In this document: one piece after another, positions 2,639-56,538 of the stretch
Numbering within the stretch: the stretch's first letter is position 1
How the letters are laid out: every line of letters starts with the position of its first letter
Source: Bacteroidota bacterium
Lineage (GTDB): Bacteria > Bacteroidota > Ignavibacteria > Kapaibacteriales > Kapaibacteriaceae
Reading direction: 5' to 3'
NCBI GenBank assembly: GCA_041170435.1
Contig: JBEAYU010000045.1
Coordinates: 7,975-71,974 of the forward strand
DNA: 64,000 nt
The notes under the pieces: generated by a model
Database searches by the model: none
What the model was told of the DNA's origin: nothing
The model's input: the letters and a program-made list of their open reading frames with translations, nothing else
Position numbers and translations under genes: made by a program

Positions 2639-2911
2639 ATGATAGTGATCAATATGCACGAAGCAAAGACCACATTGTCGCAGCTTGTTGAGATGGCCTT
2701 GCACGGGGAAACAGTCATCATTGCGCGACGCGGCGTGCCCGCGGTTCGCTTGGAGCCAGTATCTGATAGCGATTCACAGCGCCCTATCGGGCTTGGTGCT
2801 TCCATATCAGCAGCTGGCGATACCGGTCACGAACTACTGTCGGCCACGAATCCTGATGTGTATCAGGAAAGCACGACCGATCCACTTGACCGGCCTCGCC
2901 GCAAGGCATGA
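2639..2911 (+). CDS. Type II antitoxin, Phd/YefM-like
   Basis: N-terminus MIVINMHEAKTTLSQLVEMALHGETVIIARRGVPAVRLEPV is typical of prevent-host-death antitoxins. AGGAG lies 7-8 nt upstream. 4-nt ATGA overlap with the downstream PIN gene. Confidence 0.75.
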   Translation: MIVINMHEAKTTLSQLVEMALHGETVIIARRGVPAVRLEPVSDSDSQRPIGLGASISAAGDTGHELLSATNPDVYQESTTDPLDRPRRKA

Positions 2912-3303
2912 GTATGCGCATTCTGCTCGACACGCATGCTCTACTCTGGTACGATGCCGAACCGGACAGGCTCAGTGCGATCAGTCGCGAGATAATCCAA
3001 CAGAGAGACACGATCGTCCTCTGTTCCGCGGCATCGATCTATGAGCTATGGCAGAAGGCCATGAAACCGAAATCGCCAATCCGACCTGAACATGTCGAGT
3101 CAGTGCTTCGGCATATTCCCGTGTATGGCTTTACACTCCTTCCGATCGAAGTCAACCATGCAGCAGATGCGGCAGTTCTCAAATGGTCAAATCGTGACCC
3201 CTTTGATCGAATCATCGCAGCCCAAGCGATCGCCGAGAATTGTGCCATCATCACGTGCGATTCGGCATTCAAGAGCCTGAAGCAGGTGGAGATACTCTGG
3301 TGA
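2908..3303 (+). CDS. vapC: Type II toxin, VapC family (PIN domain)
   Basis: ILLDTHALLWY N-terminal acidic PIN signature, about 130 aa, overlaps the antitoxin stop. Its TGA stop lies inside the first heptamer of the downstream repeat array. Confidence 0.8.
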   Translation: MSMRILLDTHALLWYDAEPDRLSAISREIIQQRDTIVLCSAASIYELWQKAMKPKSPIRPEHVESVLRHIPVYGFTLLPIEVNHAADAAVLKWSNRDPFDRIIAAQAIAENCAIITCDSAFKSLKQVEILW

Positions 3304-3339
3304 CAGGTTACAGGTGACGGGTTACAGGTGACGGGTTAC
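3298..3339. repeat. Six tandem heptamers GGTKACR (alternating GGTTACA / GGTGACG)
   Basis: Direct reading: ggtgaca ggttaca ggtgacg ggttaca ggtgacg ggttaca. The vapC TGA stop (3301-3303) is embedded in unit 1. Confidence 0.95.
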
Positions 3340-3351
3340 AGGCGTGCAATC

Positions 3352-3776
3352 GTCATTCCCGCGAAAGCGGGAATCCATACATTATAGTAGGGGCGAGACG
3401 CAGTCTCGGCCGATGGTTTGCGCACAACGCCTGACGCGTCATGCTGCATAATTGCCCAGGGCTTTAGCCCTGGGAAAATAGGGGAGCCCCCTTCTACTAA
3501 TCATTTTCAAATCAATTCGATTCTATCTCTTATCCCAGGGCTTCAGCCATGGGAAAATAGAGCAAGAATGATTTGTTTGTGCTGGAATTGAAAGGGGGCT
3601 TGCCCCTCTTTCCCATGGCTGAAGCCATGGGAAGTTATGCGTTAAGATGGATCCCGGCCTGCGCCGGGATGACGGGGGTGCGCGATGAAGATGGATCCCG
3701 GCCTGCGCCGGGATGATGGTGATGGGTGCGGCCGAGAACAATGATGAATGCGGGCGAGACTGCGTCTCGCCCCTAC
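3352..3776. repeat. Repeat cluster A: at least 8 REP-like hairpin elements of several related families
   Basis: Hairpins read directly:
- 3352-3378: gtcattCCCGCGaaagCGCGGGaat-type (attcccgc gaaa gcgggaat)
- 3387-3411 and 3752-3776: GTAG-ggggcgagac...gtctcgcccc-CTAC
- 3455-3474, 3534-3553 and 3612-3631: cccaKggc-loop-gccMtggg
- 3647-3673 and 3691-3717: atggatCCCGGCctgcGCCGGGatga
No credible ORF. Confidence 0.9.
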
Positions 3777-16280: not shown

Positions 16281-16306
16281 GTCATTCCCGCGAACGCGGG
16301 AATCCA
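16281..16306. repeat. REP-like hairpin (gtcattcccgcgaacgcgggaatcca)
   Basis: Same family as 3352-3378 and 21796-21822. Confidence 0.9.
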
Positions 16307-16328: not shown

Positions 16329-16513
16329 ATGGATCCCCGCTTTCGCGGGGATGACGAGGATGGATCCCCGCTTTCGCGGGGAAGACGAGGATGGATCCCC
16401 GCTTTCGCGGGGATGACGAGGATGGATCCCCGCTTTCGCGGGGATGACGAGGATGGATCCCCGCTTTCGCAGGGATGACGAGGATGGATCCCCGCTTTCG
16501 CAGGGATGACGAT
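16329..16513. repeat. Six contiguous 31-bp tandem units, each a hairpin (atggatCCCCGCtttcGCGGGGatgacgagg)
   Basis: Units start at 16329, 16360, 16391, 16422, 16453 and 16484. Units 5-6 share a stem mismatch (gcaggg) and unit 2 has gaagac. There are no spacers between units. Confidence 0.95.
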
Positions 16514-16517
16514 TGTA

Positions 16518-16552
16518 CCTGTAACCTGTAACCTGTAACCTGTAACCTGACC
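16518..16552. repeat. Heptamer array (CCTGTAA x4 plus CCTGACC) ending at the ATG of the next gene
   Basis: Direct reading. It is the reverse complement of the GGTTACA unit at 3298-3339. The ATG at 16553 follows immediately. Confidence 0.95.
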
Positions 16553-16882
16553 ATGTCCTACTACAACCCCACCGACCTGCCCAAGTTTGGCAACATCAGT
16601 CAGTACCAGCCGGAGCTGGCTGCGAAGTTCTTTGAATGGTATGGCGCCGTGTTTGAAGAGGGGGCGCTGACGCAGCGGGAGAAGTCGCTGATCGCTTTGG
16701 CCGTTGCACATGCGGTGCAGTGTCCGTATTGCATCGACGCCTACACGACGGACAGCTTGCAGAAGGGGTCGACGGAGCAGATGATGATGGAGGCAGTGCA
16801 TGTGGCTGCAGCCATCCGCGGTGGAGCGTCGATGGTGCACGCCGTGCAGATGATGAACAAGGTCAACGAAGTGTCGATGTAG
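16553..16882 (+). CDS. AhpD-like / carboxymuconolactone decarboxylase family protein (arsenosugar-biosynthesis-associated peroxidase-like type)
   Basis: REKSLIALAVAHAVQCPYCIDAYT carries the CxxC of the AhpD fold. About 109 aa. Lies immediately upstream of an ArsS-type radical SAM gene, as I recall for this family. Confidence 0.75.
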   Translation: MSYYNPTDLPKFGNISQYQPELAAKFFEWYGAVFEEGALTQREKSLIALAVAHAVQCPYCIDAYTTDSLQKGSTEQMMMEAVHVAAAIRGGASMVHAVQMMNKVNEVSM

Positions 16883-19635: not shown

Positions 19636-20448
19636 ATGGAACTCAATCAGATACATTTAGGTAACGCTCTGGAGTTGGTCAATGAACTCGAGCCGGATAG
19701 TATTGATCTGATCGTTTGTGACGGTCCGTACGGGGTGACGCAGAATGAATGGGATCGAATTGGCGACATCCAGACATACAACCTCAATTTGCTGAGGATC
19801 TTCTCACGCGTACTGAAGCCAGGTGGTGCGCTCTATCTGTTCGGCAAGGATGATTGCATCGATTTTATCGACTACCGACCGTACCTCACGCTGAATCGAC
19901 GCATCGTCTGGTATCAGCCGAGTCGACTGGCGCAAGGGCGAATGAACTACACGAACAACTACGATATCATTGCCTACTTCTCGAAGGGCAAGGCCAAGAC
20001 CTACAACCTTGATGACATACGCGTGCCGCAGCTTGTGGAACTCGAACATCGGCTTCGGTGCGAACGTGTTCCTTCAGTCTTGAATGGGCAGTACGGTAAG
20101 ACGCGATTCAATGATCTTGGGAAAAATCCTGGTGATGTATGGGGTGATATCAAGCAGCTGACCTATAAGTCAAAGGAACTGCTTAGACGTGATCTTCTGA
20201 ATACCATTCAGAAACCAGAGCGACTGCTGGAACGTATTGTCCGCGCGAGTTCCAACGAAGGTGATGTTGTGCTGGATCCTTTCTCCGGCGTGGGTACAAC
20301 CTGGGCCGTGTGCGCAAGATTGAATCGCAATTTTATAGGGTTCGAGATCAATCCGCAGTTCATTGAGATATCACGTAAACGACTTGAATCATCATTAGTG
20401 GATACCGAATATGGCCTCTTCTCGGAAAACCCTCGTTCTGAGGTTTAA
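19636..20448 (+). CDS. Type II DNA methyltransferase (beta-class N6A/N4C)
   Basis: Catalytic-motif region DLIVCDGPYGV lies N-terminal and the AdoMet motif VLDPFSGVGTT is C-terminal (beta permutation). The gene is visibly AT-richer than its neighbours. Confidence 0.85.
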   Translation: MELNQIHLGNALELVNELEPDSIDLIVCDGPYGVTQNEWDRIGDIQTYNLNLLRIFSRVLKPGGALYLFGKDDCIDFIDYRPYLTLNRRIVWYQPSRLAQGRMNYTNNYDIIAYFSKGKAKTYNLDDIRVPQLVELEHRLRCERVPSVLNGQYGKTRFNDLGKNPGDVWGDIKQLTYKSKELLRRDLLNTIQKPERLLERIVRASSNEGDVVLDPFSGVGTTWAVCARLNRNFIGFEINPQFIEISRKRLESSLVDTEYGLFSENPRSEV

Positions 20449-20929
20449 TCGCAAAATCGCCAAGCGTATTATTCGTGCCGCCCAGCATCTCTATAGTGAT
20501 GGCCTAGCCCACGGCATCCGGAACATCTTTCAACCGGGCCTTATCAAGGAGATCATTATCGCGGACATTCTTGGTCACCGCGTGATCTCCAACAAACGAT
20601 TGCCGGACGCATGCAGCGCTACTGATGAAAGTGTGTTCTACGAGTACCTGACTTGTGAAGAGGGAGGCTCCTGGCAGATCGATAGGATGTTTTCAAAGCC
20701 CCTGGAGAAGCGCAGGACATCGCTCGACCGAATCCTTCGTAACGAGAAGCTCTATCTCGTGTCATTCAAACGCGACTCGCTGGATGTTTCTGTCATCTTC
20801 GAGGTCGATCCACAAGTCGCCGCTAAGGAAGCCGAGCGACAACTCAATGCAAGCAGTAATGAGATATCGCACATCTCTTTCTCTCAAAGCTGGACAAAGG
20901 TAAACGGAACCGTGGTGTGGACGAAATGA
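20411..20929 (+). CDS. Putative type II restriction endonuclease, PvuII-like
   Basis: 172 aa; overlaps the MTase by 38 nt. By-eye similarity to my recollection of R.PvuII: HGIRNIFQ vs HGINDIFQ, G-x-x-V...DA block, IFEVDPQ vs IYRLEPK. The Lys of the E-x-K motif is not evident. Confidence 0.5.
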   Translation: MASSRKTLVLRFNRKIAKRIIRAAQHLYSDGLAHGIRNIFQPGLIKEIIIADILGHRVISNKRLPDACSATDESVFYEYLTCEEGGSWQIDRMFSKPLEKRRTSLDRILRNEKLYLVSFKRDSLDVSVIFEVDPQVAAKEAERQLNASSNEISHISFSQSWTKVNGTVVWTK

Positions 20930-20968: not shown

Positions 20969-22264
20969 ATGCACATCCTCATCATCGGTAACGGCATTGC
21001 CGGAGCAACGCTCGCACGCAGGCTACGAGAGCTGGGGCGAGGCGATGAGCCACTGGTGACGCTGATCTCCGATGAAGCCCCTTATCACTTCTCGCGTCCG
21101 GCTATGATGTACATCTCCACCGGACAGCTCAGGTACGAGCATACGAAGTCATACCCGGATGGGTCGTGGGATGACCTCGGCATCAAACGCATGCAGGGTC
21201 GGGTAGAGCGCATCGATGCCGAAGCGCAGAGGGTGCACATGAGCGATGGCACGACGCTCGAGGCCGATGTGATCGTCATTGCCACGGGATCGAAGCCAAA
21301 CATTCCGGCTGGACTCAACACCACGCTCCGTGGCGTGCATACCTACACGCGCTTGGAGGACGTGGCTGCGCTTGATGAATCCTTGAAGGGGGCTCTCCAC
21401 GGCGTGGTCATTGGTGGCGGTCTCATCGGTGTAGAAGCTGCCGAGATCGTGTCCACGCACATGCACAAGCGAGCGGGGAGCACTATCACGTGTGTGGTTC
21501 GCGAAGACGGATTCTATGCCAATGTGCTGCCAAGTGAGGAATCGCAGATCATCACCGAGCATTTGCGGCAGCACGGCATCAGCGTGCGGGTTTCCTCAAC
21601 GGTGGTATCCATCGACGATCAGGATGGTGATGGTCGCGTTGATCATGTGACGTTCAGCGATGGCTCCGTGATCCCGGCCAACGTGGTCGTTGTGGCCACT
21701 GGAGTGGTTCCGCGAACGGAGCTTGCCAAGGAGGCGGGAATTGCGTGCGGCGAAGGTATTGTCGTTGACGATCGATTTCGGACGAGTCATACGAAGTCAT
21801 TCCCGCAAGAGCGGGAATCCATTATCTACGCCATCGGCGACTGTGCTCAGCTGCCATGGGGTGTGCGGCCGACGTGGTATGCCGGACGCATGCATGCAGA
21901 GCATTTGGCCCACATTCTCGCAGGACATGACGAGCCGTTTCGCGATCCCATCGATTATAACAGCGCGAGGTTCTTTGATCTTGACTGGTCTACCTATGGC
22001 CACGTGCCCGCTGACGCGAGCGCAGTCAATAGCATTCTTCTCGTGGATACCGATGGCCAACGTTGTGTGCGAATCGTTCATGATGCCCACAGGTGCGTCA
22101 TCGGTATCCATGCGATTGGTCTGCGTTTGCATCAGACCGCGTGTGAGCAATGGATCGCGCAGCGCCAGCCCCTTGACGAAGCACTCAAAGAGTTGAATGC
22201 GGTGATGTTCAATGCTGAGTTTGTGCCGGCATTCGTTTCGGCATTTAGAGGAGAGGCGCAGTGA
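20969..22264 (+). CDS. FAD-dependent pyridine nucleotide-disulfide oxidoreductase family protein
   Basis: N-terminal ILIIGNGIAGA dinucleotide fold, second Rossmann VVIGGGLIGVEAA, C-terminal IYAIGDCA motif. Confidence 0.85.
   Translation: MHILIIGNGIAGATLARRLRELGRGDEPLVTLISDEAPYHFSRPAMMYISTGQLRYEHTKSYPDGSWDDLGIKRMQGRVERIDAEAQRVHMSDGTTLEADVIVIATGSKPNIPAGLNTTLRGVHTYTRLEDVAALDESLKGALHGVVIGGGLIGVEAAEIVSTHMHKRAGSTITCVVREDGFYANVLPSEESQIITEHLRQHGISVRVSSTVVSIDDQDGDGRVDHVTFSDGSVIPANVVVVATGVVPRTELAKEAGIACGEGIVVDDRFRTSHTKSFPQERESIIYAIGDCAQLPWGVRPTWYAGRMHAEHLAHILAGHDEPFRDPIDYNSARFFDLDWSTYGHVPADASAVNSILLVDTDGQRCVRIVHDAHRCVIGIHAIGLRLHQTACEQWIAQRQPLDEALKELNAVMFNAEFVPAFVSAFRGEAQ
21796..21822. repeat. REP-like hairpin copy (gtcattcccgcaagagcgggaatccat) inside the oxidoreductase CDS, in frame
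   Basis: Same element as 3352-3378 and 16281-16306. It translates as SFPQERESI, immediately before the conserved IYAIGD motif. Confidence 0.85.
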
Positions 22265-23370
22265 CAGGTATGCAGCATCCGGTGCAGATCATCCTTCCGA
22301 AGGGGGCTGGGCGGTCTGCGACGATGACGAGCTCGTTAGAGCAGCGTCCATGGCTGCGCTATATGCTGGCCGCTTTGATGACCGGCTTCTACGTCTGTGT
22401 TTACTGGTTCCCATCTGTGCTCGATCCGTTGACGCGATCCGCTGATTGCCTGTCACAAGCACTGCGACAACGTCCGGCCGATGTATGGTTTGTGTACGGT
22501 ACCATCTACACGATTGCCGTGGTTCTCTTTGGCATACGATCACTTCTGCGAAACGGTCACGAGCGATACCACCGCTACCGAATCCTGGTGCTCATGTTTG
22601 TGCAGTGCATTGCGGCGTATCTCATTCCCGCCATGCTTGTGCGCAGCGGAAGGGGCGAGTTCTACTTCTCCTACTTCTGGCCGCTCAAGCCCGAGTATCT
22701 CTTCCCATCATCCGTTACGACGATGATGTCGAGTCACGACGCTCTCATGACCTTTGCTGCTTGGTGGAGCATCATCCTGTTGGTTCTTGCCACGCCCCTT
22801 CTCACCTACTTCTATGGCAAGCGTTGGTACTGCTCGTGGGTTTGCGGCTGTGGAGCACTAGCCGAGACGGTCGGTGATGACCTTCGACACCTGAGTAGCA
22901 CGTCGAAGGACAGCTGGACGCTTGAGCGGTGGACCATCTATCCGGTCTTGGGAATCATCGCGATCATCACGATCCTGCTCTGGCAACAGCATGTTGATCC
23001 AAGTCCACAACTGTCGGGCGTTGTCAGCCATGCCAACCGCATCTACGGCTTTGTCATCGGCGGACTCTTCTCCGGCGTCATCGGCGTGGGCTTCTACCCG
23101 ATCTTCGGTGCCCGTATCTGGTGTCGCTTCGGATGTCCCATGGCCGCCATCCTGGGCATCCTTCAGAAGTACGCCTCTCGCTTCCGCATCGAGGTCAACC
23201 CCGGACAATGCATCTCCTGCGGCAACTGCAGCACCTACTGCGAGATGGGTATCGATGTGCGTTCCTACGCCGAAAGGGGCGAAACCATCAAGCGCGCCTC
23301 CTGCGTCGGCTGCGGCGTGTGCTCCAGCGTATGCCCCAGAGGAGTGTTGAGAGTGACGAGTGACGAGTGA
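22261..23370 (+). CDS. Polytopic membrane 4Fe-4S ferredoxin-type protein (NapH/MauN-like)
   Basis: Cys clusters CSWVCGCG, CRFGCP, CISCGNCSTYC and CVGCGVCSSVCP. Several TM helices. GTGA overlap with the upstream oxidoreductase. The stop lies within the heptamer array. Confidence 0.8.
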   Translation: MTGMQHPVQIILPKGAGRSATMTSSLEQRPWLRYMLAALMTGFYVCVYWFPSVLDPLTRSADCLSQALRQRPADVWFVYGTIYTIAVVLFGIRSLLRNGHERYHRYRILVLMFVQCIAAYLIPAMLVRSGRGEFYFSYFWPLKPEYLFPSSVTTMMSSHDALMTFAAWWSIILLVLATPLLTYFYGKRWYCSWVCGCGALAETVGDDLRHLSSTSKDSWTLERWTIYPVLGIIAIITILLWQQHVDPSPQLSGVVSHANRIYGFVIGGLFSGVIGVGFYPIFGARIWCRFGCPMAAILGILQKYASRFRIEVNPGQCISCGNCSTYCEMGIDVRSYAERGETIKRASCVGCGVCSSVCPRGVLRVTSDE

Positions 23371-23420
23371 CGAGTGACAAGTGACGAGTGACGAGTGACA
23401 AGTGACGAGTGACGAGTTAC
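23353..23420. repeat. Heptamer array (GTGACGA/GTGACAA), 9 units plus a partial
   Basis: Direct reading. The TGA stop of the 4Fe-4S gene (23368-23370) is inside unit 3. Confidence 0.95.
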
Positions 23421-23421
23421 T

Positions 23422-23817
23422 TCAGCCCTTACGCGCTGTTTGAATTGCGGCGACCAGCATTCGTCGGACATTAAGGGCTGTTGCCATAATCCCCTCCAGT
23501 TCTTTCGCGTCAACGAGAGGTGGCTCAGTGGTCAAGACGCCAAGCCAGTAGTACATCTCTCCCAGTTCCTTTTCGGCAATCTTAAGCTTGTGGACAAAGT
23601 CCTTCTTCGATTCGGCGAACTGCGCCTCTCGAATGTTTGCCCCAATCGAAGTTCCAGCCTTCAGCAACTGAGTTAAGACCGAGTGCTCAAGGGTAACTCC
23701 ACGGTTAAGCCTTCGACACAGAGTCCAGATCATTCGCGATAGAACAACGGAATCGTGTGACAGCGGTCCCTTGTCCCGTGATGGTAAGATGATGTCTGTT
23801 GTATTCACAAACATCAT
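23422..23817 (-). CDS. Four-helix-bundle protein (23S rRNA intervening-sequence protein / Avd-like family)
   Basis: QLLKAGTSIGANIREAQFAESKKDFVHKLKIAEKELGEMYYWLGVL matches the family signature (SIGANIxEg, F..KL.IA.KE..ET.YWL). ATG at 23817 preferred over the TTG at 23835. Confidence 0.85.
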   Translation of the reverse strand: MMFVNTTDIILPSRDKGPLSHDSVVLSRMIWTLCRRLNRGVTLEHSVLTQLLKAGTSIGANIREAQFAESKKDFVHKLKIAEKELGEMYYWLGVLTTEPPLVDAKELEGIMATALNVRRMLVAAIQTARKG

Positions 23818-23843
23818 AGAGCATTTAGGCAGCAAAACGTGAC

Positions 23844-23983
23844 GTCACTCGTCACTGGTCACTGGTCACTCGTCACTCGTCACTGGTCACTCGTCACTTG
23901 TCACTCGTCACTTGTCACTTGTCACTTGTCACTCGTCACTCGTCACTCGTCACTTGTCACTCGTCACTTGTCACTTGTGACTC
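23844..23983. repeat. Heptamer array (GTCACTC/GTCACTT/GTCACTG), 20 units; reverse complement of the 23353-23420 array
   Basis: Direct reading, unit by unit. A palindrome GTGACGTCAC at 23839-23848 forms the inner junction. The POT gene stop (23988-23990) lies just outside. Confidence 0.95.
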
Positions 23984-23987
23984 GTCC

Positions 23988-25373
23988 CTACCTCTCGCCG
24001 CCCAACATCGCGCCGAGCTTCTTGCGTGGTAGCAGGAACATGGCTACGGCCAGAAGGCTCATGCCGACCATGATGCCGAAGTAGCTTTGGTTACCCATGC
24101 GGTCATAATACGAGCCGATGAAACCGGCCAAGTAGTTGCCGAAGAAGCTCGACAGGTACCAGATACCCATGAACATGCTGACCATGCGGACGGGGGCGAC
24201 CTTTGAGACCATGGCCTGGCCGATAGGGGAGAGGTAGAGCTCGCCGATCGTGAACAGGAACACCACACTGGTGACCCATATCAGATTGAGTTTCTGTCCG
24301 TCCTCGGCCATGCCGGCAACGGCGATCATGACCAGATACGCAATGGCCATAAACACGCAGCCGATGGCCATCTTCACAACTGTCGATGGTTCAGACTTGC
24401 TGCTGCGCTGCCACGCCCAAAAGCGATTCAGCAAGGGGGCAAGCAGCACTATGAAAAATGGGTTGAGCGACTGAAACCACGAAGAAGGAACATCAATCCC
24501 AAGGATCGACCAGCTCGTTTTCTCGTCGGCCCATACCTGCAAGGTGTTGCCCTGCTGCTCGTACACACCCCAAAACAAGATGTTCACAAAGCACAAGTAT
24601 CCGATCACGATCAGGGGGCGAACCCAGCCCTGATCGACATTTGCATGTTCGGTTGTTGGCATTGCAGAGCGCTGACCCTGCTTGGGAAGATGCTTGGTGC
24701 CCATCCAGTATATGAACGTGCCAACAAGCATGCCAACGCCGGCAGCTCCAAATCCCCAGTGCCAGCCCCATGTCTGCCCAAGTGTTCCGCAGACGAGAGG
24801 TGAGAAGAAGGCACCGAGGTTCACGCCCATGTAATAGATCGTATAGGCACTGTCGATGCGCTGATCGCCCGGCTCATACAGCGTGCCCACCTGCGCACCG
24901 AGGTTCGGCTTGAACATGCCGTTGCCCATGATCAGAAACAGAAGCGCCAGAAGAAACATCGACTCAAACGCCATCATGAAGTGACCGATGGCCATGAAGA
25001 TCGCACCGAGATACACTGCATTGGTTTTGCCAAGGTGCCGGTCGGCTAGCCATCCGCCAATGAACGGAGTGAAGTAGACAAATCCCGTGTAGAGACCGTA
25101 GATCTGCGACGAAACGCCGATGACCGATAGGGGGCCGAACAGACTTGTCAGCATGTTGGTCAGCGCCGTGTACCCAAGGACATTGCCGGAGATCTGCGGG
25201 TCAAGCAAGAGATACTTCGTCATATACAGCACCAACAGTGCGCGCATGCCGTAGTAGCTGAAGCGTTCCCACATCTCGGTCAGGAACAGGTATGACAGAC
25301 CGATCGGGTGACCAAGAAACTCCTTCGTTGACGCCGCCATGCTCGCCCCTTGCTGATGAAGTAAAGTGTCCAA
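23988..25373 (-). CDS. Proton-dependent oligopeptide transporter (POT/PTR2, DtpT-like)
   Basis: GHPIGLSYLFLTEMWERFSYYGMRALLVLYM signature. About 12-14 TM helices. The start could be the second Met (25340). Confidence 0.9.
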   Translation of the reverse strand: MDTLLHQQGASMAASTKEFLGHPIGLSYLFLTEMWERFSYYGMRALLVLYMTKYLLLDPQISGNVLGYTALTNMLTSLFGPLSVIGVSSQIYGLYTGFVYFTPFIGGWLADRHLGKTNAVYLGAIFMAIGHFMMAFESMFLLALLFLIMGNGMFKPNLGAQVGTLYEPGDQRIDSAYTIYYMGVNLGAFFSPLVCGTLGQTWGWHWGFGAAGVGMLVGTFIYWMGTKHLPKQGQRSAMPTTEHANVDQGWVRPLIVIGYLCFVNILFWGVYEQQGNTLQVWADEKTSWSILGIDVPSSWFQSLNPFFIVLLAPLLNRFWAWQRSSKSEPSTVVKMAIGCVFMAIAYLVMIAVAGMAEDGQKLNLIWVTSVVFLFTIGELYLSPIGQAMVSKVAPVRMVSMFMGIWYLSSFFGNYLAGFIGSYYDRMGNQSYFGIMVGMSLLAVAMFLLPRKKLGAMLGGER

Positions 25374-25481
25374 CTCGTGCTGCCTCCATTGGCATCGGTC
25401 GCAAGATATTCCATTGCACGGGACTGTTGCGACATCTATTTTGTGGAACCATATTCAGACCATTATCAGTCCGGCTGCATC

Positions 25482-25772
25482 ATGAAAGATCTTGAGAACA
25501 TCAAGCCAATTAGTTACTTCAAGGCTAATGCGGCTGAAATGCTGGATGCACTCCGCGAGACCGGTGTGCCGTATGTGATCACCCAGAATGGAGAGGCCGC
25601 TGCTGTGCTTGTTGACTCACGTGAGTACTCCAAGATGCAGCGTGCCATTGAGCTGCTCCGTCTCATTCAGATGGGTGAGATGGACATTGCACGCGGTAAG
25701 ATCATGGGCGTCGATCAGGCCCGAGCATCAATCACGAAGGCACGACGGAAACGAGCTGATGCCTCCGCATGA
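25482..25772 (+). CDS. Type II antitoxin, Phd/YefM family
   Basis: MKDLENIKPISYFKANAAEMLDALRETGVPYVITQNGEAAAVLV. Start at the internal ATG at 25482. ATGA overlap with the toxin gene. Confidence 0.8.
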   Translation: MKDLENIKPISYFKANAAEMLDALRETGVPYVITQNGEAAAVLVDSREYSKMQRAIELLRLIQMGEMDIARGKIMGVDQARASITKARRKRADASA

Positions 25773-26095
25773 AGCAGTTCACGGTTGCTCTTACGGACGG
25801 CGGCGTGCAGGACCTCACGGCCATCGACGAATGGGTGTCCTCGTCGAAGGGGCCTCATCCCGCCGAACGGCTCGTCGATGCCCTTCTCGATCGTATCGAT
25901 GCCCTAGCACGGCTTCCGAACCGTGGCTCTGCGCTTCCCGAGTTCCACGGTCTGGTCTATCCGGACTACCGCCAGGTTGTCTGCCGCGGCTACCGCATCA
26001 TATACCGTATCGATCGTGAGACGGTGTACGTGCTTGCCGTCATCCATCAGAGGAGAGATATAGCAAGTGCGATGCTGAGCAGGTTGCAGGAGTAG
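25769..26095 (+). CDS. Type II toxin, RelE/ParE family
   Basis: 108 aa. C-terminal YRIIYRIDRETVYVLAVIHQRRD is typical of ParE/RelE toxins. Coupled to the upstream antitoxin. Confidence 0.8.
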   Translation: MKQFTVALTDGGVQDLTAIDEWVSSSKGPHPAERLVDALLDRIDALARLPNRGSALPEFHGLVYPDYRQVVCRGYRIIYRIDRETVYVLAVIHQRRDIASAMLSRLQE

Positions 26096-26098
26096 TAC

Positions 26099-26114
26099 CT
26101 CCGTAACTCCGTAA
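26099..26114. repeat. Two tandem octamers CTCCGTAA immediately after the toxin stop
   Basis: Direct reading. The reverse complement (TTACGGAG) contains GTTACGG-like units related to the GTKACRR heptamers. Each unit carries a TAA. Confidence 0.7.
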
Positions 26115-26123
26115 CTTTGAGTC

Positions 26124-56465: not shown

Positions 56466-56538
<73 letters not shown>

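Follow-up and report, generated by a model that had tools for sequence, protein, structure and literature searches.

A gene of the S23p family that lies between two inverted arrays of tandem heptanucleotides, in the spacer separating two convergent protein-coding genes, appears to form one unit with these arrays, a unit that is inherited and relocated as a whole and that can flip. As read from the sequences compared, the association of gene and arrays spans at least five phyla, with units that differ. S23p ORFs can also be found in the intervening sequences (IVSs) of the 23S rRNA genes of Leptospira, Coxiella burnetii, Brucella and Xanthomonas, where insertion takes place in helix 9, 25 or 45. 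The reading favored here, to which we give about an even chance, is that the spacer is a free-standing counterpart of such an IVS, namely a functional S23p gene carried between inverted heptamer arrays and relocated together with them. As a unit outside rRNA, the gene with its inverted arrays is seemingly undescribed; full-text search found no literature tying the S23p family to flanking heptamer arrays, except for the Coxiella IVS.

The locus is part of a 64-kb stretch of DNA, analyzed over its whole length and referred to below as the window. The spacer between the Fer4 and POT genes measures 617 bp and has the three-part layout given in the original prediction, i.e., an array, a gene on the minus strand and a second array, the coordinates of which were checked on the sequence (Table 1). 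The left array is made of nine perfect GTGACRA units (23353-23415) followed by a degenerate tenth, GTTACTT (23416-23422). A repeat search pairs two 73-nt arms, 23352-23424 with 23840-23912, at 92% complementarity. The two arrays had been called an exact reverse complement family: their inverse relation stands, but not its exactness, as GTCACTG units and one mutated unit of the right array have no counterpart in the left arm. The palindrome announced at the inner junction, GTGACGTCAC, is indeed present at 23839-23848, in a hairpin that is the sole terminator-like site within 23200-24200, and the motif GTCACGTTT at this junction is kept in all the Kapabacteria cassettes read. Single copies of GTGACRA outside both arrays number 14 in 64 kb and are never tandem. 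Shorter heptamer or octamer arrays can be found elsewhere in the window (3299-3342, 16517-16549 and 26095-26116), with no S23p gene there. Neither arrays nor cassette match any Rfam family, whether the region is searched at E <= 1 or, together with 14 related loci, the whole window at gathering score; in agreement with the original prediction, Rfam detects no rRNA gene in the 64-kb window, where only one tRNA is present (56466-56538).

Table 1. Features of the Fer4/POT spacer in the window, and neighbors of the cassette in the Kapabacteria loci
Feature	Coordinates	Strand	Remarks
Membrane 4Fe-4S (polyferredoxin/NapH-like) host gene (Fer4)	22261..23370	+	ORF list; Pfam Fer4 families
Left arm	23353..23422	+	9 GTGACRA + degenerate GTTACTT; downstream of cassette gene; TRF 23351-23417, 9.6 copies, score 120
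Cassette gene, 131-aa four-helix-bundle S23p / 23S_rRNA_IVP	23422..23817	-	PF05635, TIGR02436
Inner junction hairpin GTGACG-AGTGA-CGTCAC, then GTTTTG	23839..23855	-	contains GTGACGTCAC; 21 nt ahead of ATG
Right arm	23843..23986	+	YGTCACT units (AGTGACR on gene strand); upstream of cassette gene; TRF 23843-23986, 20.6 copies, score 211
POT/PTR2 transporter host gene	23988..25373	-	ORF list; Pfam PTR2 E 2.9e-57
Cassette in window, L084, L209, L210			Fer4/POT junction
Cassette in L001/L002			E2 acyltransferase on one side, D-Tyr deacylase on other
Cassette in L003			arginase on one side, ABC-F ATPase on other
Cassette in L005			adjoins tRNA-Leu
Cassette in L211			adjoins PEPCK

Regarding the cassette gene itself, an in-frame TTG at 23835 upstream of the ATG would extend the ORF to 23422-23835 and the product to 137 aa; the ATG at 23817, which yields 131 aa, is the start that homologues use, and P0001, a protein 100% identical to the product, begins there. 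The assignment to the family, which comprises 15,103 clusters at 50% identity under the names S23p or "four helix bundle protein", is given by Pfam PF05635 (E 7.8e-15, 55.4 bits vs. a cut-off of 33.8), by NCBIfam TIGR02436 (E 4e-20, 72 bits vs. a cut-off of 24) and by a profile match to PDB 2RLD (E 6e-34). The AlphaFold model (pLDDT 88) has four long helices, and Foldseek ranks 2RLD first (TM 0.72/0.91), then 2GSC (0.7/0.83), then the Avd structures 4DWL and 8UB7 (0.6-0.7); in sequence, the protein is 33% identical to 2RLD, a standalone S23p, and 15-18% identical to Avd. The family context named at the outset, 23S IVS and Avd, was therefore right. Comparison with copies in other genomic contexts yields a dN/dS of 0.10-0.15, and purifying selection is thus acting on the gene as judged from this ratio of about 0.1. 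No paralogue was found within the window by tblastn, no catalytic motif was recognized in this small helical bundle and, according to Pfam, the gene contains no transposase domain. A diversity-generating retroelement (DGR) was considered and rejected because no reverse transcriptase domain is present among the 12 flanking ORFs scanned with Pfam, as the original prediction also had it; no TR/VR-like long direct repeat occurs around the gene, and no site-specific recombinase was found among the scanned neighbor genes.

Both host genes end in or next to an array. The Fer4 gene terminates, as foreseen, on the TGA of left-array unit 3 (23368-23370), and its last residues (VTSDE) together with this stop are encoded by the array; its orthologues have a common core up to ...GVLR, followed by array-encoded tails that vary with the local unit. 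The POT stop codon (23988-23990) lies 2 nt from the right array. TGA occurs in all three frames of each arm, when the left one is read from the Fer4 side and the right one from the POT side. Read-through transcription into the cassette is likely to come from the POT gene, which lies directly upstream of the cassette gene on the same strand; no sigma-70-like promoter was found in the 25 nt between the right array and the ATG, the consensus used being perhaps ill-suited to this phylum. The predicted minimum-free-energy RNA fold (ΔG -288 kcal/mol, z = -8.8) pairs both arms in one long stem; the stem enclosing the gene that had been suggested is thereby reproduced in silico, and the complementary arms can, according to this model, form a stem of ~75 bp around the ORF.

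Copies from Kapabacteria MAGs and metagenomes, 57-100% identical, occur in five unrelated genomic contexts (Table 1), and all of them have (AGTGACN)n on the upstream side and (NGTCACT)n on the downstream side. Inverted flanks around orthologues or paralogues, for which the original prediction had proposed to search, are thus found in these five contexts, and in other phyla with units of their own. Across genomes the unit next to the gene is AGTGACN throughout, in contrast with the differing units of the other arrays found at syntenic sites. In L211 and L005 the upstream neighbor is divergent and the upstream array short or degenerate, from which it follows that read-through cannot be the sole source of expression. 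At the Fer4/POT junction of near-identical strains, alignment of the assemblies shows the inter-arm segment in both orientations: between L084 and the window, Fer4 and its array align in plus orientation and the inner segment in minus, at 97.7%; L210 has the other flipped junction and L209 the orientation of the window. The samples from which L084, L209 and L210 derive are ERZ27272069, SRR33648758 and ERZ27292242. The assemblies that show the flipped state are short-read metagenome assemblies, L210 carrying adapter and fold-back sequence, and part of this evidence could be an assembly artifact. The left array also varies in copy number among near-identical strains, from 5 units in L209 to about 10 in L084.

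The mechanism, whether RNA processing, protein binding or recombination, is inferred. If the cassette is a free-standing counterpart of a 23S IVS, then, having no evident promoter, it would probably depend for its transcription on read-through from POT, which is co-oriented, or, when flipped, from Fer4. The arms would pair in the transcript and RNase III would cut the duplex, as in the IVSs of Coxiella, Leptospira and Salmonella; the ORF-bearing loop would thus be freed and detached from the host mRNA. The cassette would flip when one inverted arm recombines with the other, and elsewhere in the genome arrays with its unit could provide homology for its relocation. More speculatively, the ring protein, putatively pentameric, may act in cis by binding the repeats or the stem, much as Avd does with a stem-loop next to its gene. 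The original prediction knew of no described mechanism; a precedent exists in the Coxiella 23S IVS, in which heptamers precede the ORF and RNase III cuts the terminal stem (PMC4990558).

Inverted arrays of period 7 or 8, with lineage-specific units, also accompany distant relatives from Cyanobacteria, Bacteroidota, Spirochaetota and Clostridia. When 79 family genes were compared with 137 control genes from the same loci, any flanking array was found at 35/79 vs. 9/137 (p = 7e-11), a matched inverted pair at 12/79 vs. 0/137 (p = 3e-6) and a flank complementarity score >= 20 at 15 family genes vs. no control. The density of TRF arrays is about 1 per kb near the gene vs. 0.09 per kb elsewhere, and flanking arrays are present in 8/8 of the finished isolate replicons examined, pNPUN02 of Nostoc punctiforme among them. 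Chance co-occurrence with genome-wide repeats is ruled out by the control-gene comparison together with the finished replicons, and a metagenomic artifact as the origin of the arrays themselves by isolate replicons, including that of N. punctiforme PCC 73102. The upstream neighbor is co-oriented with the family gene at 44 of 63 loci (by ORF), as are nearby upstream tRNAs in 36 cases out of 37. In the tRNA-linked class from Clostridia, which speaks against the favored reading, both arms are located upstream of the gene, and the gene has its own TTGAAA-17-TATAAT promoter. A conserved partner gene in Clostridia, where the next ORF often overlaps the stop (ATGA), was rejected, these ORFs being mutually unrelated.

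Arrays can also be found without the gene. At the Fer4/POT junction, more distant relatives have gene-less inverted heptamer hairpins of other units, GATGACC in L088 and GGTGTGA in L086, while L085 has GTGACRA and then a Fic gene; GTGACRA arrays are common in metagenomes, and none of the 80 array-seeded loci there has an adjoining S23p gene. The arrays thus belong to a wider intergenic class and are not just cassette ends, and the inverted arms at this junction can persist and be maintained without the gene. The suggestion that the arrays mark the boundary of a mobile unit is accordingly supported by the flanks recurring at five sites, but weakened by the gene-less arrays of L085, L086 and L088. 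It could even be that the inverted hairpins are ordinary host intergenic elements (3'-end stabilizers, bidirectional terminators or STRR-like repeats) and that the gene landed in a loop. The hairpins of L088 and L086, which fold well on both strands, the empty metagenome loci, the arrays abutting gene ends throughout the 135 kb of Kapabacteria sequence examined, and the PIN and ParE toxin and Fic genes that likewise end at arrays in the window and its relatives all agree with such a passenger gene. This is nevertheless very improbable, considering that the gene keeps AGTGACN where local arrays use other units, that the inner junction GTCACGTTT is conserved and travels with it, that the arrays are devoid of the U-tract typical of intrinsic terminators, that the layout recurs across phyla with unrelated units, and that enrichment relative to the remaining genes of those loci is more than 10-fold, the inverted pairs numbering 12 vs. 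0.

The heptamers could alternatively be binding sites, on RNA or DNA, for the ring-shaped protein of the cassette, in a TRAP- or iteron-like manner, serving autoregulation or a nucleoprotein complex at both ends, in which case complementarity would be a by-product and the stem unneeded. The lineage-specific units follow the protein lineage, arrays outside Kapabacteria are usually 3-6 units long and S23p forms a homopentameric toroid (PMC4990558); for Avd, the sole characterized relative, the nucleic acid bound is encoded next to the gene. Some layouts also point in this direction: in Clostridia class II, conserved TGAAATC/GATTTCA units are interleaved with unrelated hairpins and cannot make one continuous stem, and L215, L216 and L214 have direct-orientation arrays on both sides, or three arrays. 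A test of wobble (G·U) asymmetry, which also weighs against the favored reading, gave no sense-strand RNA signature and no sign of selection on the arms as a sense-strand RNA stem, the sense duplex being the stabler at 3/18 loci and the antisense duplex at 10/18, with the antisense favored by 10 kcal/mol for the arms of the window. However, arrays in Kapabacteria can run to 20 units or more with a freely variable copy number, the gene-less arrays of other units in the same genomes would each require a binder of their own, and array-seeded loci almost never have the gene, so that we regard such binding as possible but rather doubtful as an explanation.

Arrays are far more numerous than genes, as would be expected if the S23p protein, alone or, like Avd, assisting a polymerase or reverse transcriptase, created, spread or homogenized them in the manner of RAYT and REP, the gene then standing between copies of what its protein makes. 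Dolichospermum plasmid pAfl69 has ten arrays of the flanking unit, all clustered less than 6 kb from the gene, and none in the other ~28 kb examined; in L057, a discrete ~34-nt block has seven copies in 6.3 kb; in the MAG GCA_018882895 (L085), the flank unit is present at two further sites; and genome-specific units at syntenic Kapabacteria sites suggest turnover or homogenization. Such an activity would nonetheless have to come from a small helical bundle with no recognized catalytic motif and no reverse transcriptase among the 12 flanking ORFs scanned. Moreover, the non-cassette arrays of two MAGs have units unlike the gene-flanking ones, and pNPUN02 of N. punctiforme has, beside the arrays flanking the gene, a single other and unrelated heptamer array in 40 kb, none further of the same unit. 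We consider this origin of the arrays unlikely. Equally little likelihood is attached to a broader proposal, in which standalone S23p/PF05635 ring proteins would be trans-acting partners of STRR-type arrays, each recognizing its own heptamer, and would, unaided or together with a polymerase as Avd with a reverse transcriptase, start new arrays, maintain them or move them. If this were true, the gene with inverted arrays would be the autonomous form of a widespread transposase-less mobile element, and gene-less arrays and hairpins its non-autonomous derivatives.

We know of no function for the S23p family apart from Avd and, to our knowledge, tandem heptanucleotide repeats have had no explanation since STRRs were described in cyanobacteria; the link between gene and arrays across phyla, together with the rRNA IVS, offers a testable handle on both. 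The cassette inserts cleanly at gene boundaries, including inside defense or metabolic operons and behind tRNAs. In practice, annotation is affected by host genes gaining array-encoded tails and stop codons, and metagenome assembly by segments that flip between inverted arrays; the link also bears on screens that flag the S23p family as CRISPR-associated.

Among known systems, REP/RAYT similarly associates a single small gene with inverted short repeats that are far commoner elsewhere without the gene. Unlike RAYT, the cassette gene is not an HUH/Y1 transposase, its repeats are non-palindromic tandem heptamers and not palindromes of ~20-40 nt, and the other arrays of one genome often differ in unit; the gene is flanked by the dispersed repeat of its genome in Dolichospermum and GCA_018882895, but not in two other MAGs or pNPUN02. 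As in invertons, a segment between inverted repeats is seen both ways round in close strains (from independent assemblies), but no recombinase was seen nearby, there is no evident promoter inside the segment, and the element is symmetric, so that the gene comes to lie behind a co-oriented host gene whichever way it is turned. The TAACTGA repeats of Beggiatoaceae and the cyanobacterial STRRs are intergenic tandem heptanucleotide arrays abutting gene boundaries (MacGregor, 2015, PMC4679880), which the present arrays resemble in being tandem heptanucleotides, mostly intergenic, at gene boundaries, in Cyanobacteria and Bacteroidetes; in contrast, those are described as direct repeats mostly upstream of starts, with no mention of inverted pairs or a link with S23p (PMC4679880).

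Avd, which shares the fold of the cassette protein, binds a stem-loop in RNA encoded next to the Avd gene, and the DGR RNA has a long-range duplex between TR-flanking sequences (bioRxiv 10.1101/2023.10.23.563531); unlike in DGRs, no reverse transcriptase or TR/VR pair is found near the cassette, the protein of which is closer in sequence to standalone S23p. In the Coxiella IVS, two to three copies of GACAGAT, varying in number among strains, precede the S23p start, RNase III cleaves at the first repeat, the terminal stem has 28 bp and the ORF is reported as decaying and untranslated (PMC4990558). The cassette differs from 23S IVSs in lying between two protein-coding genes, outside rRNA, in having long tandem arrays as arms (70 and 144 nt vs. 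a 28-bp stem) and in occurring in both orientations, and from the decaying Coxiella ORF in being under purifying selection. What it shares with them is an S23p-family protein encoded in the loop, complementary stem-forming termini and an ORF in the sense of the host transcript and, with the Coxiella IVS in particular, tandem heptamers of strain-variable copy number.

The original prediction placed a minus-strand four-helix-bundle gene between two inverted heptamer arrays, at the junction of the convergent genes for a 4Fe-4S protein (Fer4) and a POT transporter; coordinates, TRF and Pfam agree on this layout, and Fer4 indeed terminates on an array codon. A repeat search of the window gives arms of 73 nt each that are 92% complementary, and beyond the two arrays the heptamer occurs as scattered single copies only. 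As had also been predicted, neither an rRNA gene (in the window) nor a reverse transcriptase (among the 12 flanking ORFs scanned) was found, and the window holds no paralogue of the cassette gene. The nearest named relatives of several window genes are "Candidatus Kapabacteria/Kapaibacterium" MAGs.

Cassette, host genes and other array-related features of the window
Feature	Position	Strand	Description
Left array	23353-23415		nine perfect GTGACRA units and a degenerate tenth; TRF 9.6 copies, score 120
Right array	23843-23986		20.6 reverse-complement heptamer units; TRF score 211
Cassette gene	23422-23817	minus	131 aa from the ATG used in homologues; PF05635 (E 7.8e-15), TIGR02436
Fer4 gene	22261-23370		stop is the TGA of left-array unit 3
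POT gene stop codon	23988-23990		2 nt away from the right array
(GGTGACR/GGTTACA)x6	3299-3342		begins on the stop codon of the gene for a PIN-domain toxin (2908-3303); no S23p gene
(ACCTGTA)x4.7	16517-16549		ends 4 nt upstream of the ATG at 16553; no S23p gene
(GTAACTCC)x2.8	26095-26116		between ParE toxin stop (gene 25769-26095) and ThrRS start (26124); no S23p gene
Phd/ParE module	25377-26095		between POT and ThrRS
DNA methylase and 172-aa ORF	19636-20929		upstream of an oxidoreductase gene; missing in L086 and L088
31-bp tandem repeat x5.9	16329-16512		around the palindrome CCCCGCTTTCGCGGGG
GTCATTCCCGCGAAAGCGGGAATCC, dispersed copies	including 3352-3378, 16281-16306		REP-like palindrome of ATTCCC-N8-GGGAAT type

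The same junction can be followed in loci from other genomes and metagenomes. In L084, whose Fer4 protein is 95% identical to that of the window, the cassette is inverted: Fer4 with its array matches the window in plus orientation, the inner segment (97.7%) in minus orientation. The opposite flipped junction is seen in L210, where the gene's 3' end is followed by seven units and the 3' end of POT, and L209 has the orientation of the window with just five units on the Fer4 side. Compared with the window, these loci indicate an inversion of what lies between the arms and a number of array units that varies among near-identical strains; the flipped state comes from short-read assemblies, though their k-mer is longer than the decisive junctions. 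L210 is a public metagenome contig that opens with Nextera adapter sequence (1-40) and continues as a fold-back, in which the POT 3' end and its reversed copy enclose array, gene and array, illustrating how inverted arrays can mislead short-read assemblers.

Protein copies at 57-100% identity occupy five unrelated genomic contexts in Kapabacteria, namely Fer4/POT (window, L084, L209, L210), E2 acyltransferase/D-Tyr deacylase (L001, L002), arginase/ABC-F ATPase (L003), and sites adjoining tRNA-Leu (L005) or PEPCK (L211). All have (AGTGACN)n upstream (degenerate in L211) and (NGTCACT)n downstream, and GTCACGTTT is conserved as their inner junction; gene and arrays appear to move as one. At other intergenic sites of the same MAGs the arrays are often built of other units (GGTGTGA, GATGACC, TGGGGAC, GGAATGAC), while the unit adjoining the gene remains AGTGACN. 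Between cassette-gene copies of different contexts dN/dS is 0.10-0.15, and the protein is therefore functional.

The original prediction implied that family genes elsewhere carry the same inverted flanks, which holds for the five Kapabacteria contexts and, with other units, in other lineages. In a sample of 80 relatives (34-84% identity, one genome per species), a tandem array of period 6-9 lies in a 220-nt flank of 35/79 family genes vs 9/137 other genes of the same loci (p = 7e-11); a matched inverted array pair was found for 12/79 vs 0/137 (p = 3e-6), and a flank complementarity score >=20 for 15/79 vs 0/137. With TRF as detector, 50/81 loci have a period-7/8 array <=300 nt from the family gene, and the density of such arrays near it is >10x that elsewhere in the 81 loci. 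Units, read directly from the sequences, vary between lineages although the arms are complementary in each: GCAATTC/GAATTGC in Nostoc, GTAATTC/GAATTAC in Dolichospermum, AATTAAC/GTTAATT in Bacteroidales and Prevotella, AGTGAAG/CTTCACT in Oscillospiraceae, TATGAAN/NTTCATA in Nemorincola, and the 8-mers GATTTGAW/WTCAAATC in Chitinophagales. Arrays accompany the family gene in all eight finished isolate replicons examined (two Nostoc, Dolichospermum, Anabaena, Planktothrix, Gloeocapsa, Treponema, Bernardetia), which rules out an assembly artefact as their source; on pNPUN02 of N. punctiforme PCC 73102 both arrays abut the gene, and 40 kb contain one other, unrelated heptamer array. The association is very probably real, and the array-flanked layout appears to be a property of the protein family, which comprises 15,103 clusters at 50% identity. 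The gene of L040 (Faecousia sp., 366-729) is flanked by a ~90-nt direct repeat (terminator hairpin and following sequence) instead of inverted arrays, which looks like a long target duplication.

Arrays at the Fer4/POT junction without the gene, which the original prediction took to speak against a cassette, do exist in distant relatives; near-identical strains keep the cassette, flipped or as in the window, so that the outcome of this test is mixed. L088 has (GATGACC)3, a 12-nt loop and (GGTCATY)4 within a 47-nt spacer, L086 an outer GGTGTGA/TCACACC pair, and L085 a retained GTGACRA array with a Fic gene behind it. Reciprocally, among 80 metagenome loci seeded with the GTGACRA array, none has an adjacent cassette-family gene, one encodes a family gene ~2 kb from the array, and about a dozen have a close inverted partner array without the gene. 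Both results argue for arrays as a broader class of element, a small minority of which carry the gene, yet with the gene strongly tied to arrays.

Arrays occupy the whole space up to neighbouring gene boundaries, and host genes often terminate within the first units (Fer4 in the window, L003, L010, L014). The stops face inward: on the strand entered from the host gene, 11 of 14 unit families have them in all three frames, expected of random heptamers 26-46% of the time and possible since neither 7 nor 8, the array periods, is divisible by 3. At the syntenic site upstream of ThrRS, L085 has CGTCACT x18 and L086 TGGGGAC x13 with CACACCT x6. In some strains array-bearing intergenic sites of these genomes harbour further accessory genes, among them the Fic-domain gene at the Fer4/POT junction of L085 (2906-4303 of that locus) and, in the window, the Phd/ParE module and the DNA methylase with its 172-aa ORF. 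Arrays may mark hot spots of gain and loss of small genes. Hairpins (CCCCGGGCCAAGGCCCGGGG) related to the REP-like palindrome break up arrays in L001, L002 and L085.

Regarding mechanism, a long stem enclosing the gene had been suggested, and folding of the gene-sense RNA (23340-23995) predicts that the arrays pair as a single ~75-bp stem around the ORF (ΔG -288 kcal/mol, z = -8.8). In the Coxiella 23S rRNA intervening sequence (IVS), the loop closed by a terminal stem of 28 bp contains an S23p ORF, immediately before whose start come GACAGAT heptamers, two or three depending on the strain, and RNase III cleaves at the first repeat; Leptospira and Salmonella IVSs are likewise RNase III substrates (PMC4990558). 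The upstream array ends only 25 nt before the cassette ATG, a scan of this interval found no promoter-like site, and the gene is co-oriented with its upstream gene in the window and most loci; in 36/81 loci a co-oriented tRNA, of many identities, precedes the family gene by 137-578 nt. From the fold, the Coxiella precedent, the missing promoter and the co-orientation we infer that the cassette would be transcribed by read-through, its arms pairing in the transcript and RNase III processing the duplex, although this specific IVS-like mechanism is held at an even chance or somewhat less. Selection for a sense-strand RNA stem should leave mismatches favouring G·U on that strand; no such signature was found in the arms, the sense duplex being more stable in 3/18 loci and the antisense in 10/18. 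Arm complementarity is clearly maintained, across three different units at a single junction and >10 unit families overall, whether at the level of RNA, DNA or symmetric protein sites.

Several observations support the alternative that the heptamers are candidate binding sites of a ring-shaped cassette protein: Avd, the accessory protein of diversity-generating retroelements (DGRs), binds an RNA stem-loop beside its own gene; arrays outside Kapabacteria usually have 3-6 units, S23p being a pentamer; and the class II units of Clostridia (below) are conserved though unable to form one continuous stem. The confident structure model of the cassette protein (pLDDT 88) matches, in Foldseek order, BT_0352 (2RLD), Xcc0516 (2GSC) and then DGR Avd (4DWL, 8UB7); the protein is a standalone S23p-type member. 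A DGR component was rejected, no reverse transcriptase having been found among the 12 flanking ORFs scanned.

In Clostridia/Oscillospiraceae (L007-L079) the tRNA-to-gene interval comes in two stereotyped forms. Class I opens with a terminator and (YTTCACT)x3-4, after which the terminator's 3' half is repeated ahead of (AGTRAWA)x4, a hairpin, a TTGAAA-17-TATAAT promoter and the family gene; in class II, small hairpins are interspersed among TGAAATC units, and GATTTCA units follow as the mirror set. This suggests alternative, attenuator-like pairings. The family-gene stop overlaps the next start (ATGA) in L007, L009, L018, L030, L031, L035, L061, L062 and L067; the overlapping ORFs are mutually unrelated (GNAT acetyltransferases, a Cys-rich 109-aa protein, a membrane protein, a HAD-like protein), hence a constant gene ahead of variable cargo.

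In Dolichospermum L057 (1133-5739) a ~34-nt block, (AATTACG)x4.7, has seven copies in 6.3 kb, most within long helicase/methyltransferase ORFs with the frame kept (NYELRITNYEL). Plasmid pAfl69 (L212, 18068-24452) has ten same-unit arrays <=6 kb from the family gene; the rest of the sequence examined (~28 kb) has none. Dolichospermum arrays of 4.7, 7.7 and 10.7 units preserve the frame; one of 5.7 units lies where an annotated CDS is split near 21280, possibly through a heptamer-driven frameshift or through phase variation. The cyanobacterial gene often lies within defence operons (L215, Anabaena cylindrica pANACY.01; L217, Gloeocapsa; L216, Planktothrix; L212), inserted between cas2/cas1, DUF1156 protein/Swt1-HEPN protein or helicase/methyltransferase genes. 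Such insertion may explain why "23S rRNA IVP" appears among CRISPR-adaptation-associated proteins in a figure legend of Altae-Tran et al. 2023 (PMC10910872).

Among known systems, the cassette most resembles the rRNA IVS in its working but lacks the residence in an rRNA gene that defines it. REP/RAYT elements are similar in layout and differ in gene and repeat type, while STRR and TAACTGA repeats are like the cassette arrays, their descriptions being silent on an S23p-family gene. In full-text literature searches only the Coxiella paper (PMC4990558) links S23p to heptameric repeats. The family-wide association of gene and arrays thus appears undescribed so far, and the cassette is therefore classed as a free-standing, array-armed, invertible IVS-type cassette.
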